From the NCBI GenBank assembly GCA_012441205.1, contig GCA_012441205.1_4705.1: 64,000 nucleotides of DNA; one strand, written 5' to 3'. The stretch's first letter is position 1. Each line of letters opens with the position of its first letter. The DNA comes from a phage. The notes under the pieces are model-generated. The model had not been told where the DNA came from. It searched no databases and was given only the letters and a program-made list of their open reading frames with translations. Made by a program: the position numbers and the translations under genes. Shown in pieces: positions 5,342 to 10,370 of the stretch.

Positions 5342-5971
5342 ATGAGCGAATATGGTGTTGCCCCCGTAGATGATGAACCGCAAGAAGCACCTGATAAATT
5401 CGAGGTCCGTCTTGACGAAACCCGTAATATCCGCCAACGATTTATTCAACGCCTTGAAATGCTGTTAGATAGCGAATTCAAAGATTTCGAGCTTAATCCT
5501 GGCGCTGATAACAAAGCCATCGTCGACGTCGAAAACGTCGACCGAATAGGTAAGCTGTTGTTGAAATCGTTGGGCGATAACGACAAAGTCGACTTAACGT
5601 TGAAACGTATCAGTGCCGACCAGGCCATGAATGACAGCGCACTGAAAACAGCACAAGCCCTAACCGAAACCATGCTGCGCCGCTTAGGTCAGATGGATCA
5701 ACATCCTCTCGCAGCAGGGGCTGTTTATGAAGGCGAAGTCGTGAAGCCAGTCACGCCTGAAGAACGTGATCGTCGACTTGGTTTTGCGTCATTGGAAGAG
5801 TTCGATAGCAAGGAGTTCTCACCAGGCGTTCTCATCCAGGGACGTGTCGAAGAAACCAGCGATGCTTTCTATGCTAGAATGGCTCAACTGACGGCGTCGG
5901 TTCGTGAGGAGGTATCTCAGAAGATGGCTGCAGATCATCAGTCTTCGGAGGCGTCACACGAGGAGGAATAA
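5342..5971 (+). CDS. hypothetical acidic protein
   Basis: ATG preceded by GGAGA at 8 nt; 209 aa, Glu/Asp-rich. Confidence 0.6.
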   Translation: MSEYGVAPVDDEPQEAPDKFEVRLDETRNIRQRFIQRLEMLLDSEFKDFELNPGADNKAIVDVENVDRIGKLLLKSLGDNDKVDLTLKRISADQAMNDSALKTAQALTETMLRRLGQMDQHPLAAGAVYEGEVVKPVTPEERDRRLGFASLEEFDSKEFSPGVLIQGRVEETSDAFYARMAQLTASVREEVSQKMAADHQSSEASHEEE

Positions 5972-6662
5972 AATAACTGAACCATTTTATTCCAAAGAAC
6001 CGCATGAACATCACAGGCGCGTTAGAAAGTTCGATTGCTTCGTAAAGTTTGTCATAAGCCAGATCGGAATCAGGGATGGTTTCACTGATTCGTCTGGCTA
6101 CAACCAATACGTTACAAATCGGATTGTCTTCTAACAGCATCTGATTGGGGAGGTGCCAGCGTTTGAAATCGTAAAAGAACATCGCATTATACGTCTTACG
6201 GATTTCTGACGGATGCAGTGTGGCCGGATGACGGTAAATAATCTCAACGCTATCTTGCGCGCCGAGGTATTGCTGGATGCCTTCTTTTAACGCAATTGCA
6301 GCATCTCCCACAAATTCAAACGGGTACGTATTCACATGAACCGAAAAATCCGGTGCGGCAATCCCTGTCAAGCGGTCTTTCATGTAGTCCGCAACCACGT
6401 AACATAATCGCCACATCAACTCCGTCGGAATACATTTATCAAGAATGGTTTCATCGATATTTGCCAACGCACCCTTAAACTCTTCGTAAGTGTAAGTAAC
6501 ACCCGCCTGCTTTTCCGGCTCCAGGTTATAGGGTCGGTAATGCCATTTCTTCCCCCACTTTCTGATAGCCTCAGGATCCAACGTTGTTGCTACCGCCATT
6601 TCGATATCAAGCAGCGCCTCGAGTTCTACGTACACCGTCACTAACGCCGCATTTCCAGTCAT
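5874..6662 (-). CDS. hypothetical protein (3' end overlaps convergent gene 5342..5971)
   Basis: 262-aa ORF; Pro-rich C-terminal ~30 aa lie in the 98-bp overlap with the + gene. Confidence 0.5.
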   Translation of the reverse strand: MTGNAALVTVYVELEALLDIEMAVATTLDPEAIRKWGKKWHYRPYNLEPEKQAGVTYTYEEFKGALANIDETILDKCIPTELMWRLCYVVADYMKDRLTGIAAPDFSVHVNTYPFEFVGDAAIALKEGIQQYLGAQDSVEIIYRHPATLHPSEIRKTYNAMFFYDFKRWHLPNQMLLEDNPICNVLVVARRISETIPDSDLAYDKLYEAIELSNAPVMFMRFFGIKWFSYFIPPRVTPPKTDDLQPSSEIPPHEPTPSVEPF

Positions 6663-7366
6663 CGTTGCTCTCCAGCTTCACCGGTTAACATCTGCATATC
6701 GGGAGACGTTTTAATTTTCTTCTCGTACTCTTTTGTTTGTTTGAATACCAACTCACCGATTTCTTCCAATTCTTCAACGGTGACGGTATGCAAATAAAGC
6801 AACGGAATAATCCAGGTATTCGCACGAAGCATATCCCGAATATCATCAATGGTGGGTAATTCCGTAAAGAACTGTTCGTCTACCGCGAATAAATCCCGGG
6901 CGATACCATCCACCAGTTTATGATTGCTTTCATGGATCCATGCAAAACTTCCAGCAAGATGATCGATAAGCATATCGATGTCATCGACAGTTGAGAACAC
7001 TGTACGCCGAACGTGCGTTGTGAGGTCCATCGTAAAACCCATTAACGAAGGGGTTTCCTCAGAACGGAGTTCACGCCAAAGACGGATCATGTTTTCAGGG
7101 ATAAACAAATCATGGATGAACGTCACACTGAATTTCGTAACCCAGTCACGAATTGTTGCCCCTTTGGAATATTGTTGCGGTGGGGAATACAAATACACCC
7201 AGCGTTTCGTGTACGCGATAACTTCCTTTCGCATCGCCGCATCTAAAACAAGCACGTAACGATCGGAAGCAAGCTCTTCTAATAAAAGCTCGAACGCAGT
7301 ATCACTCTCTGGGGAGAACGATCGTTTTATTTCTGCGATACGTCGTGATAACCGACCACGTAACAT
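6659..7366 (-). CDS. hypothetical protein
   Basis: 235-aa ORF, 4-bp overlap with downstream gene (operon-like packing). Confidence 0.55.
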   Translation of the reverse strand: MLRGRLSRRIAEIKRSFSPESDTAFELLLEELASDRYVLVLDAAMRKEVIAYTKRWVYLYSPPQQYSKGATIRDWVTKFSVTFIHDLFIPENMIRLWRELRSEETPSLMGFTMDLTTHVRRTVFSTVDDIDMLIDHLAGSFAWIHESNHKLVDGIARDLFAVDEQFFTELPTIDDIRDMLRANTWIIPLLYLHTVTVEELEEIGELVFKQTKEYEKKIKTSPDMQMLTGEAGEQR

Positions 7367-7368
7367 AA

Positions 7369-8043
7369 TTAGCCCTCATCAAGGTTATTCTGGAGATGCA
7401 TCGCGGTGAGGATAACGCCAACCGCCGAAACCGATTTTGCCTTGCTGTCTTCAGGGAGCTGCTCCAAGCTTACGGTACCTGTTTCTAACAGCATGCGGTT
7501 CATCGCGTTGAACTTCTTATCGTCACCACCACGAGCCTGCATCAGCTCTCGGTTCACGTTCGGCATCGACCGTCCTAACGTCGCTTGCATTTCCGGCTGG
7601 CTCCAAGTGGAACCTTTACTATCACCCGTCGGCTGATTGGTGAGCTGGTCCTTGGTGTTGTTGTTTTTCGGAATCGAAATTTTAGCACTCAACGTTTCGG
7701 CTTGTCGGCGGTTTGGAATCAGGTACAATCTGGTTGGGCGGTCACGAAGCACCAATTGCCCTGTTTTCTGGTCGGTGAGATAAATGCGTTGGAAGAAAGG
7801 GAAACCGTATTTCTTACCGACTTCCAACGCACGTTTTATCGTCACCTCGTTTTTGTTCATGTTGGGTACCCAGATGGGTAGAATCTCTTTCTTATCCCGA
7901 CATAAACGCATATAGGCATCAAACGTCTCATCATCGATTTCAGCAAAACGTTTTTTGTAAATAGCGTAAGTCGGGCTCGATTCACCCACCAGGTCTTTGA
8001 TATACCCAAGAATGAATTTTTCTGCTGCAGCGCGGTTGGACAT
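7369..8043 (-). CDS. hypothetical protein
   Basis: 224-aa ORF in tight minus-strand array. Confidence 0.55.
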   Translation of the reverse strand: MSNRAAAEKFILGYIKDLVGESSPTYAIYKKRFAEIDDETFDAYMRLCRDKKEILPIWVPNMNKNEVTIKRALEVGKKYGFPFFQRIYLTDQKTGQLVLRDRPTRLYLIPNRRQAETLSAKISIPKNNNTKDQLTNQPTGDSKGSTWSQPEMQATLGRSMPNVNRELMQARGGDDKKFNAMNRMLLETGTVSLEQLPEDSKAKSVSAVGVILTAMHLQNNLDEG

Positions 8044-8052
8044 AAACGTCTC

Positions 8053-8394
8053 CTATTGTCGTGTCTGTTGCGGAAATACCCGAAACACCTGGACAATGAT
8101 GTTCTTGTCCTCGCGGTTGGCGATGTCGATCATGTGTTTTGTTCCAGGACTTTTGAAATCCCAGAACGCAATTAAATGCGTAATGACATCGCCCATCCAC
8201 TCATTGCGTCTGAATCCAGCACCTTTACGATAAGGACCATCCCAATCGGCAGGAAACGTGGTGTATTTAAACCCGTAATCCTTCGCGTAGCGGCGCACAT
8301 GCAAATCAGCGCCTGAATGCGCACCGCCAGCAATGAGATGAACTTTGTCGTGAGGAAGGTTGTGTAACATCTGGTTCATACGCTTTTCGAACAA
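8053..8394 (-). CDS. small Rossmann-like protein, possible SLOG/DUF2493-like
   Basis: Motifs LIAGGAHSGADL ... FPADWD ... GAGFRRNEWM ... LIAFWDFKSPGTKHMI resemble phage-associated SLOG proteins (from memory). Confidence 0.35.
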   Translation of the reverse strand: MFEKRMNQMLHNLPHDKVHLIAGGAHSGADLHVRRYAKDYGFKYTTFPADWDGPYRKGAGFRRNEWMGDVITHLIAFWDFKSPGTKHMIDIANREDKNIIVQVFRVFPQQTRQ

Positions 8395-8447
8395 GGGATA
8401 ATCATCCCAGTAGCGTGATCCCGATACCCCTACACGATAGGGTTCGC

Positions 8448-8768
8448 TTATCTTCCACCGCGCAATGACTTTACGTTGCGTGCGATAAAGGGTGCAACGT
8501 AATCACGGAAATTATGGATCCATCCTTTAATGGGTTGGTTGTCTAGTAAGCACTCACGTACCGAAAACGTACTTACTTCTAATACACCAAACTGTAGTCG
8601 CCAATAGCGATTGATTTCAGCTTGGGTATGTTCTAATGTCATGTACTCAGGAACACGAGCCAATAGGTCGTGTTTAAATTGCTCAGCAATCGCTGGTTGA
8701 TGTGACGCAATTGTCTGCGTGATAACATCAATCAGTTCATGTGCATGCTTGATAGCAGGTGCGGTCAT
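8448..8768 (-). CDS. hypothetical protein
   Basis: 106-aa ORF in same operon-like array. Confidence 0.5.
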   Translation of the reverse strand: MTAPAIKHAHELIDVITQTIASHQPAIAEQFKHDLLARVPEYMTLEHTQAEINRYWRLQFGVLEVSTFSVRECLLDNQPIKGWIHNFRDYVAPFIARNVKSLRGGR

Positions 8769-8780
8769 TTATTTAGCCTT

Positions 8781-10271
8781 TTATTTTTTACTCGGACGAT
8801 TCAATGCGGGTACCGGGTTCTTTGGTTGCTTTGTCTTTTCATCCATCCAGTACGGGAAGTACTCACCAGTACGCATACGCAATAAGTCCATTGTGGACAG
8901 GAACGGCAGCGGGTTAGGATCGTCCAGATACGTCCAGTAACCACGCGTGTTTAACAATACATCCCAATCGAAACCTTTTGCTTTAAGATCGTCGTACAGT
9001 TCCTGTGGGGTGCAATACAGCTGTGGGTTTTCGTAAACCTCTTGACGCCAGAGATTATGCATTTGACACAGCTCCGACGTAATTTCCAGAGCACGCTGTA
9101 AATACTCATCCTCTTCGCAGAGAGAACGAATGGTCGTACGCTGCAACGCAACATCCGGATAAATATCCAAATATACCGTTGAAGCACCATCAGCTGACTT
9201 ACCACCTGACGCATGCATACCCCAACCACGCATCCAATCTTTATCACGCAGGTAGTGGTATTCCGTTAATGATGGTTTAACCCCTTCGCTCTGACTAACC
9301 ACAATCGGGAACGGTAAGCCGGTGGGTCCGTTTTTAGCGCGCATGTTAAAGACTTGAATCAACTGCAGATCGGTATCCCCGATAAGGTTGTCACCAGGCC
9401 CACGCGGATAAAGGACGCGTTTATCCGCGTTCTGAAGAATCGTCAGTTTATCGATTTTCCAGAGGTTATTCGTATAAAACGTGAAGCGTTCCGGGACGTT
9501 CTTAAACTTCTCATCGCCCTTAAACCCTTTCAGTTTTCGTACCGGTTGCTGTCCCGGCATACCACCAACGTTTACACCGTCACCAAGGTGGGCGGTCATG
9601 GTAATGTAGATACCCGCCGACGCTGTGAGTACTGGCATCTGTGATAGAATCTGGCTTTTCGCAGCTGCTGAACGCATCGCTTCAGCATTCAGTTTTGCGC
9701 CACCCGCGGTTTCTTTATCGAACAGTGCATCAACGGCATCGATTGGTAATCCAGAGAAACTGTCGATGAGTACAACGGTCGGCAACCACCAGGTATAGTT
9801 CTCACCGTGTTTATTAATAAACGGAACGGCTTTGCGTTGAGATTTATCTTTGACCTTGTCGTCACGGAATTTCTTAATCGCATCAAACCAAATGTTACCG
9901 CTCATCTGAACAGCATCGGTGATAAACACACGTTCTTCTTCGAAAAGATCGACACCTGCGATATTAGACATGTTCATCGCAAGCGTTAAGATACGTGTTG
10001 TCGTTAACGACATTTCTGTGTCGTAAACGCTACTATTGCTGTTTGCGTAACGATCGATAACGCGTAACAAGCGAAACATTATGAACGTGGTTTTGTTCAT
10101 GTTGCCGCGAGCGCCTGCGCCCTCAACAAGCATCATGCCGCCGTTACAAATGCTTTCACCGTGTTTACCGACATAGTACCGACCACCAGATGTGGGAATA
10201 TCCATTAAGCAACCAATGTTGAGATTAAAACGCATCTCTTCACCAGGAGAAAGGTACTTATTAAGATTCAT
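8781..10271 (-). CDS. hypothetical 496-aa protein, possible RecA-fold NTPase with atypical P-loop
   Basis: NGGMMLVEGAGARGNMNKTTF resembles RecA GG...hhhhEhxG....KTT, and TVVLIDSFSG resembles Walker B hhhhDS; P-loop is non-canonical. SD AAGGAG upstream. Confidence 0.3.
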   Translation of the reverse strand: MNLNKYLSPGEEMRFNLNIGCLMDIPTSGGRYYVGKHGESICNGGMMLVEGAGARGNMNKTTFIMFRLLRVIDRYANSNSSVYDTEMSLTTTRILTLAMNMSNIAGVDLFEEERVFITDAVQMSGNIWFDAIKKFRDDKVKDKSQRKAVPFINKHGENYTWWLPTVVLIDSFSGLPIDAVDALFDKETAGGAKLNAEAMRSAAAKSQILSQMPVLTASAGIYITMTAHLGDGVNVGGMPGQQPVRKLKGFKGDEKFKNVPERFTFYTNNLWKIDKLTILQNADKRVLYPRGPGDNLIGDTDLQLIQVFNMRAKNGPTGLPFPIVVSQSEGVKPSLTEYHYLRDKDWMRGWGMHASGGKSADGASTVYLDIYPDVALQRTTIRSLCEEDEYLQRALEITSELCQMHNLWRQEVYENPQLYCTPQELYDDLKAKGFDWDVLLNTRGYWTYLDDPNPLPFLSTMDLLRMRTGEYFPYWMDEKTKQPKNPVPALNRPSKK

Positions 10272-10370
10272 TGGGTAAAGACTCCTTCGATTCTTCGACT
10301 AATTCTTAGTGTTCAGAGAATAACTATTTTTTAGTTAAGACTGACAACCGCTATTTCCACGAGGACAATC

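Follow-up and report, generated by a model that had tools for sequence, protein, structure and literature searches.

SLOG domains of the DUF2493/YAcAr type turn up commonly among phages, and earlier work describes them in jumbo phages too (PMC7824862; PMC9503650). Pfam lists the family (PF10686, YAcAr, 'YspA, cpYpsA-related SLOG family', formerly DUF2493), its phage members, such as the DUF2493 protein of Ralstonia phage RSL2 and gp61 of mycobacteriophage D29, are widespread and stand-alone, and relatives carry the labels DUF2493, DprA-like or 'GTP-binding domain'. In the distant chimallivirus orthologues of FLC1-1B, Moabite, PhiEaH1 and KpLz-2_45, the gene starts with ATG or GTG 3–8 residues before the first strand (β1), each time with a Shine-Dalgarno (SD) sequence and a short spacer after the preceding gene. 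Here we describe an orthologue in a 64,000-nucleotide (nt) stretch of phage DNA (the window; GenBank assembly GCA_012441205.1, contig GCA_012441205.1_4705.1), of which 5800..10300 shares 98.4% identity with Escherichia phage vB_EcoM_Goslar, a nucleus-forming jumbo phage in the family Chimalliviridae. The open reading frame (ORF) 8053..8394 on the minus strand is the orthologue of Goslar gp195, a hypothetical protein in GenBank that starts at the ATG equivalent to 8379. The gene is a genuine small single-domain SLOG (YAcAr/DUF2493) protein of a Goslar-like nucleus-forming jumbo phage, in itself an ordinary assignment. Our study adds that the gene truly begins upstream of any canonical start codon across the whole clade, which corrects the reference annotation of gp195, and that its junction with the preceding gene is unusually conserved and has the parts of a –1 frameshift cassette.

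Features below lie on the minus strand unless stated otherwise. The initial annotation, made from the window alone, had proposed a small SLOG/DUF2493-like protein at 8053..8394 and quoted four motifs for it. This ORF exists as a mechanical TTG-to-stop frame of 113 amino acids (aa; TTG 8394..8392) and contains all four motifs (IAGGAHSGAD, ADWDG, GAGFRRN and AFWDFKSPGT). They do not occur by chance: against PF10686 the 113-aa ORF reaches 34.3 bits (E = 2e-8), above the gathering threshold of 28.2 bits, and the motif residues are invariant columns in an alignment of 45–49 family sequences. Its boundary has to be revised. The TTG ORF covers profile positions 18–64 of 66 only and lacks β1 and the first two residues of helix α1 (18–29), whereas the frame extended to 8451 covers positions 2–64. 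The extended translation (8056..8451) scores 52.5 bits (E = 4.5e-14) over residues 6–71, PHROG 289 and two other PHROGs match it from residue 4–9, and tblastn matches in 521 phage records begin at its residues 1–9. We delimit the SLOG coding region as 8053..8451 (132 codons), bounded by ATA 8451..8449 and the TAG stop at 8055..8053. In it, strand β1 (YRVGVSG, 8419..8439; residues 5–11 in the AlphaFold2 secondary structure) leads into a G-S-R loop that continues to 8413.

The nearest stop upstream in the SLOG frame is TGA 8505..8503, and no ATG, GTG or TTG lies between it and TTG 8394. Strand β1 and the G-S-R loop, encoded at 8439..8413, are thus located upstream of both TTG 8394 and ATG 8379. 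TTG 8394 is not conserved, relatives having TAT, AAG or TTA in its place. The internal ATG (8379..8381), the GenBank start of Goslar gp195, encodes a Met within helix α1 that is kept as M in distant relatives, and it has no SD-like sequence before it (duplex of –0.1 kcal/mol vs a median of –5.8 for 50 window genes). Start-bearing relatives align from β1, and where they start the window has the ATA codon (8449..8451), which overlaps the TAA stop of the upstream gene (8450..8448) as ATAA. The coding sequence does not begin at TTG 8394 or ATG 8379 and, because an essential first strand lies upstream of any normal start in the Goslar clade, the SLOG protein probably arises through ribosomal frameshifting or through initiation at a non-AUG codon.

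This has a practical consequence. The reference annotation of Goslar gp195 and all metagenomic gene calls of relatives start at the internal Met. Strand β1 and the G-S-R loop form the core of the sheet and, by Rossmannoid analogy, part of the ligand site (PMC9503650); since the annotation omits this core strand and likely ligand-site loop, an expression construct based on it would probably misfold. We rejected a sequencing or assembly error as the origin of the start-less junction: it is identical in the Goslar isolate, nearly identical in 3 IMG/VR genomes, 5 metagenome contigs and an ENA scaffold, and found again in several Logan/ENA assemblies. A phage tRNA reading ATA or GTA as a start was also rejected, the window having no tRNA genes. 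A scan for sigma-70 promoters and terminators, which does not cover chimallivirus promoters, returned counts at shuffle level.

Four further lineages with the same gene order, taken from public assemblies, allowed a comparison at greater depth: L068 (70% identity), L007 and L008 (66–67%) and L011 (58%). All four are gene-called from the internal ATG and, ahead of this ATG, all four encode E[PR]YRV[GV][VI]SG[ST]RKWD[DN]Y in the same frame. At the position of the window ATA, L068 has ATA, L007 and L008 have GTA and L011 has TTG, and L008 has neither a canonical start nor ATA, ATT, ATC or CTG in the 44 in-frame codons before its internal ATG. Between lineages most changes in the start-less stretch are synonymous; over the 22 codons that separate β1 from the internal ATG, L007 and L068 differ by 6 synonymous and 2 non-synonymous changes. 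Within the Goslar species (ten haplotypes), each of the 18 polymorphisms located before the junction is at codon position 3 in the frame of the upstream gene and each of the 8 after it is at position 3 in the SLOG frame, 2 of these 8 inside the start-less extension between ATA and TTG. On this comparative evidence, the start-less stretch is under purifying selection in five lineages and is therefore translated.

Selection in the SLOG frame at 58–70% identity, together with polymorphism confined to third positions within the species, is unlike a decaying remnant, which is what the upstream similarity would be if the annotated short protein (108–113 aa, from ATG 8379 or TTG 8394) were the real product. 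GenBank and all metagenome gene callers did choose the internal ATG, and the short ORF alone passes the Pfam cut-off. Such a product would nevertheless be without the central strand β1 and the start of helix α1 of a confidently predicted model, and would have to begin either at an ATG devoid of an SD or at the unconserved TTG. We regard it as very improbable.

Relative to the upstream gene, SLOG lies in the –1 frame. Along the coding strand the junction reads GTA AAG, a 5-nt variable spacer, GCGCGGTGG (8463..8455), 3 nt, the ATA/GTA/TTG codon, 8 nt and CTATCGTGTAG; this last block includes CUAUCGUGU (8440..8432), second arm of a predicted hairpin. The tetranucleotide A_AAG (8469..8472) is the candidate slip site, where the zero frame GTA AAG encodes V and K of the upstream gene and a –1 slip makes GTC, in the SLOG frame, the next codon. 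The 5′ arm of the hairpin, GCGCGGUGG (8455..8463), begins 5 nt after A_AAG and contains an SD-like GGTGG (8459..8455) located 3 nt before ATA, with a duplex of –5.1 kcal/mol vs the window median of –5.8. The 3′ arm (8432..8440) overlaps the Y-R-V codons of β1, whose synonymous sites are invariant, and the five-lineage comparison reveals here an invariant 10-nt run, TATCGTGTAG (8439..8430). Within this run, at 8430..8435, an out-of-frame GTG followed by TAG forms a 'start-stop' in the frame of the upstream gene in all five lineages.

The junction is under unusually strong constraint. A_AAG, the length of the spacer and both hairpin arms are invariant in the five lineages, A_AAG at synonymous sites, and invariant runs of 8, 8 and 10 nt fall within 47 nt, when over a 4.4-kb alignment runs of at least 8 nt occur about once per 230 nt. 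Where the residue is invariant, the codon is invariant too in 4/5 cases at the junction vs 7/50 in the rest of the SLOG gene (hypergeometric p about 0.004); in the upstream gene 5/32 such codons are invariant, two being the V and K of GTA AAG. The ten Goslar-species haplotypes share a polymorphism-free zone of 37 nt at 8447..8483 (columns 86–122 of the 240-nt junction haplotypes, column 130 being 8439) that spans the slip site, the 5′ arm and ATA, with 18 polymorphisms in the 86 nt before it and 8 in the 117 nt after it. RNAalifold predicts a consensus stem between the two arms of 9 bp, including 4 G-U, that is kept in all lineages; changes are seen in L011 only, one of them one-sided at the first pair and the other a broken closing pair. 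A manual search for pairing of the loop with downstream sequence, as in a pseudoknot, gave nothing conserved across lineages.

These features suggest that the SLOG domain is joined to the upstream virion-associated protein through a –1 frameshift on A_AAG, a reading that we favor at a confidence just short of even. Ribosomes on the upstream gene would slip –1 at A_AAG (8472..8469), aided by the hairpin beginning 5 nt downstream, and reading would continue as ...NVK-VIARWKISEPY-RVGVSGSR... to yield a minor fusion of ~238 aa made of the small virion-associated protein and the SLOG domain, while most ribosomes would stop at 8448 and yield the 106-aa protein alone. Among tetramers in E. coli, A_AAG is the one most prone to shifting: it yields up to 5.6% frameshifting when a strong structure follows and about 0.15% when none does (PMC4066793). 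A stem that begins 5 nt after the slip site has the classical geometry, and the spacing between slip site and hairpin is constant across lineages. In L011 and L068 a zero-frame stop follows within one or two codons of the slip site, and distant relatives with normal starts lack A_AAG. The conserved body of the upstream protein ends at about residue 97–98, just before the slip site, and this protein would be the N-terminal partner of the fusion. The SLOG ORF is open from the shift site in the –1 frame, and L007, L008 and L068 strictly have no independent start. Frameshifting fits all three invariant blocks, with the ATA/GTA/TTG series read as a conservative I/V/L position, and is the only known route open to L007 and L008. 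A +1 frameshift or readthrough at AGA-TAA was rejected: the +1 frame meets a stop and the SLOG frame is –1.

The ATA codon of the window can also be read as a start. Translationally coupled initiation at ATA 8451..8449 would give a free SLOG protein of ~132 aa at low level: ribosomes translating the upstream gene would melt the hairpin hiding GGTGG, terminate at TAA 8450..8448 and reinitiate at the overlapping ATA. This codon is located exactly where relatives carry ATG or GTG, L011 has a canonical TTG at the same position, the ATAA overlap mimics the common ATGA start/stop overlap, and initiation from AUA in E. coli reaches about 1–2% of the AUG level (bioRxiv 10.1101/063800). The product would keep the architecture seen in every other chimallivirus, and the relatives of the small protein include no natural fusion to SLOG. 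However, the codon is GTA in L007 and L008, and L008 offers no near-cognate codon in frame before β1, yet β1 is conserved. The position of the upstream stop also shifts, overlapping the codon in Goslar, L007 and L008 and lying 11–12 nt upstream of it in L011 and L068, and the synonymous invariance of GTA AAG is left unexplained. We consider ATA initiation, the main rival of frameshifting, somewhat unlikely. Expression is expected to be low by either route.

Several observations weigh against frameshifting. The slip site is not part of a heptamer: the P-site GUA cannot re-pair after the shift and therefore slippage can only be of the tetramer type. The predicted hairpin is weak and G-U-rich, at about –9 to –14 kcal/mol with single-sequence z-scores of –0.5 to –1.8, and shows no compensatory pair. 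Alternative starts exist in the window (ATA) and in L011 (TTG), and the GGTGG before ATA has typical duplex strength and workable spacing; plain initiation therefore explains at least L011 and perhaps Goslar. In all more distant chimalliviruses, the small protein and SLOG are separate genes with normal starts. An exhaustive HMMER search found no fusion of the small protein to SLOG among 74 representative relatives, all of which are stand-alone proteins of 79–135 aa apart from one repetitive protein of 654 aa; a word-index search for in-frame fusions gave 2 matches. In the examined part of the Goslar virion mass spectrometry table (bioRxiv 10.64898/2026.04.21.720040, Table S4), gp195 has no entry and no trans-frame product is observed, and therefore, as far as that part of the table goes, an abundant packaged fusion is unlikely and a rare one neither supported nor excluded. 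The N-terminal domain of RAY gp153, considered as a homologue of the small protein, proved unrelated. An AlphaFold2 prediction of the conceptual 238-aa fusion from a single sequence (predicted local distance difference test score, pLDDT, of 44.7) was uninformative on domain packing.

The upstream gene (8448..8768, 106 aa, predicted helical) corresponds to Goslar gp194. It falls in PHROG 6181, which includes PhiPA3 gp173 (BLASTP 9e-12), a protein that GenBank notes as similar to phiKZ gp150. In the examined part of the virion data, gp194 is represented by one peptide at an estimated 7–17 copies per virion, close to the 8.5–20 copies of the virion RNA polymerase (vRNAP) subunit gp196, the product of the gene downstream of SLOG (bioRxiv 10.64898/2026.04.21.720040, Table S4). 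Taken as a whole, a scenario in which a clade of nucleus-forming E. coli jumbo phages gave up the SLOG start codon and makes the domain only as a low-abundance –1 extension of gp194, tethering a module that would bind a nucleotide or ADP-ribose signal to a protein travelling with the injected transcription machinery, appears somewhat unlikely. If frameshifting is true, a nucleotide-sensing domain would be physically joined to a virion protein, and a non-structural case would be added to the short list of phage frameshift fusions. The start-less junction is a compact recoding candidate that is directly testable, as Goslar is a model phage growing on E. coli, where frameshift and initiation reporters are routine.

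The SLOG call itself would have been refuted by the absence of any match to SLOG-superfamily profiles; it is instead supported by three independent lines of matches, namely Pfam PF10686, a match of the family profile to DprA in the PDB, and AlphaFold2/Foldseek matches. The AlphaFold2 model of the domain, built on 45 homologues and predicted rather than solved, has a pLDDT of 92.2 and a predicted template modeling score of 0.85. It shows a five-stranded Rossmannoid domain of topology β1-α1-β2-α2-β3-α3-β4-α4-β5, the first strand being residues 5–11. Its best PDB matches in Foldseek are the molybdenum cofactor (Moco) carrier protein 6y01, ShosA 8zva and DprA (5mll, 4ljk and 3uqz), with template modeling (TM) scores of about 0.7, and among viral structures the top matches are DUF2493/YAcAr proteins from RSL2, RAY, pandoraviruses and mycobacteriophages (TM 0.8–0.88). 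G11, R13, G42, A44, G47, D49, S101, G103 and T104 are invariant or nearly so across 45–49 sequences. The loops of SLOG proteins are present, G-S-R after strand 1, SGxAxGxD after strand 2 and S/GxGT after strand 4, the first of them only when the start-less upstream extension is included. The family profile matches DprA 3uqz at E = 0.007 and 4ljr and 5mll at E = 0.03, over the N-terminal half only (profile positions 4–60). A PDB search with the single SLOG protein returned spurious kinase matches only, and NCBIfam gave no match for any of six proteins.

The evidence does not place the protein in DprA proper or in the LOG clade. The DprA profile PF02481 (DNA_processg_A) has no match here at E ≤ 1, and a precomputed match to it exists in a few distant homologues only. 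The LOG clade has the catalytic motif PGGxGTxxE; the sequence here reads SPGTKHM, with no Glu at the motif position, and has no PF03641 match.

The invariant polar residues (R13, D49, D69, W70, R82, N83, S101 and T104) and the Gly-rich loops at helix N-termini suggest, with low confidence, that the domain may bind a phosphorylated nucleotide-type ligand. This ligand could tentatively be a nucleotide or ADP-ribose-type molecule, most likely one derived from NAD or ADP-ribose, although we hold this at somewhat less than even confidence, and the domain could sense or degrade such a molecule for the phage. The nucleotide-derived signalling named in the initial annotation is a prediction from the literature for this family (PMC9503650). 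There, viral YpsA-like SLOG domains, often beside Macro and NADAR, are proposed to sense or degrade immune signals derived from ADP-ribose. The slot between the UvsX-like gene and the vRNAP β gene varies between phages, and its content in two other chimalliviruses favors this proposal. In RAY (L076:1701-3492) it holds the SLOG protein gp151 (PHROG 289), the Macro protein gp152, annotated 'phosphatase' (PF01661, 1e-9), and gp153, a protein of 293 aa that has a PHROG 652 domain at its N-terminus and a YAcAr SLOG domain at its C-terminus. In PhiPA3, a DUF488-N3a protein (gp174, L075:2658-3113, noted as similar to phiKZ gp151; PF22751, 8.5e-7) replaces SLOG in the slot. A Pfam census of the 146 genes flanking 49 SLOG homologues found no dominant partner and a mix of DNA and nucleotide metabolism genes, with NAPRTase, DUF4326 and cREC as single families linked to NAD or ADP-ribose.

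The neighborhood also suggests a possible role in recombination. A UvsX/RecA-like recombinase is encoded at 8781..10271 (Goslar gp193; PHROG 97, E = 2e-32), in each chimallivirus examined SLOG is the second gene downstream of the UvsX-like one, and jumbo-phage DprA-type SLOG proteins have been proposed as single-stranded DNA-binding partners of UvsX (PMC7824862). The protein could be a minimal DprA-like mediator that binds single-stranded DNA, instead of a small nucleotide ligand, works with the adjacent recombinase and replaces a missing UvsY. DprA is among the closest solved structures and has the G-S-R and SGxAxGxD motifs in common with the protein, and family members are fused to a superfamily 1B (SF1B) helicase (ICP1 HelB) or annotated DprA-like in RAY and Moabite. 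Against this role, besides the missing PF02481 match, the similarity to DprA stays within the N-terminal half, the family-specific ADWD, GAGxxRN and SxGT motifs lie outside the aligned part, and structural matches to the Moco carrier protein and ShosA are just as good. RAY pairs its SLOG genes with a Macro domain, and adjacency to UvsX may merely reflect a collinear chimallivirus core genome, the PhiPA3 block having no SLOG in the slot. We find a DprA-like role unlikely.

The rest of the locus had been described in the initial annotation as an operon of unknowns whose neighbors have no recognizable motifs. The latter stands at the level of Pfam and NCBIfam and fails at the level of PHROGs, where 7369..8043, 8448..8768 and 5874..6662 all find matches. 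The former applies to 6659..7366, for which there is no family match, and fails for the locus as a whole, which contains a vRNAP subunit and adjoins the UvsX-like recombinase. The downstream gene 7369..8043 (Goslar gp196; PHROG 3233, 'RNA polymerase beta subunit', E = 1e-65) encodes a vRNAP β-subunit fragment whose relatives include RAY 'vRNAP beta subunit 2' and PhiPA3 gp172, noted as similar to phiKZ gp149, and it has tblastn matches in 290 chimallivirus records. Further downstream, 5874..6662 belongs to PHROG 3328, a family with no assigned function. The block of UvsX-like gene, small protein, SLOG and vRNAP β is common to FLC1-1B, Moabite, PhiEaH1 and KpLz-2_45, and in PhiPA3 a gp150-type small protein lies directly upstream of the vRNAP β gene.

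Three side observations concern these neighbors. In the examined part of the Goslar virion data, the UvsX-like gp193 is present at about 18–42 copies, comparable to gp196 (bioRxiv 10.64898/2026.04.21.720040). The L008 orthologue of the UvsX-like gene (L008:2029-4617) encodes 862 aa vs 496–505 aa in the window and L007, and has LAGLIDADG_3/Hom_end Pfam matches; its extra length is therefore probably an intein or a homing-endonuclease insertion. Two ORFs, 5342..5971 on the plus strand and 5874..6662 on the minus strand, run toward each other and have 98 nt in common (5874..5971); both are annotated in Goslar (gp199 and gp198).

Compared with other PF10686 phage proteins, the Goslar-clade proteins have the same five-stranded Rossmannoid fold, the same invariant motifs and a similar size (about 120–165 aa). 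They differ in that their genes have no canonical start before β1 and overlap the preceding gene in the –1 frame, and they end in a shorter C-terminal tail than the proteins of Moabite, KpLz-2_45 and FLC1-1B. With DprA/Smf (3uqz, 4ljk and 5mll) and the DprA-like antitoxin ShosA (8zva) they share the SLOG Rossmannoid core, the G-S-R loop after β1, the SGxAxGxD loop after β2 and a nearby RecA-family gene. In contrast to these proteins, they have no PF02481 match and no SAM or winged-helix domains, and the similarity is confined to the first ~60 residues.

At the level of expression, two kinds of system resemble the junction. E. coli infC has a weak non-AUG start, AUU. Like such genes, the Goslar-clade junction has a near-cognate codon after an SD-like sequence and an overlap suited to translational coupling; unlike them, it has GTA in two lineages, which is not a recognized near-cognate start. 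The second comparison is with tetramer –1 frameshifting in IS3-family transposases (A_AAG with a downstream structure) and with dnaX tau/gamma. The predicted hairpin here is weak and G-U-rich instead of a pseudoknot or strong stem-loop, no SD enhancer lies upstream, the two halves are independent genes in related phages, and the product is only conceptual. The Goslar-clade junction nonetheless shares with these systems a zero-frame A_AAG, a second ORF in the –1 frame, a predicted structure 5 nt downstream, a zero-frame stop soon after the slip site and a low expected efficiency.

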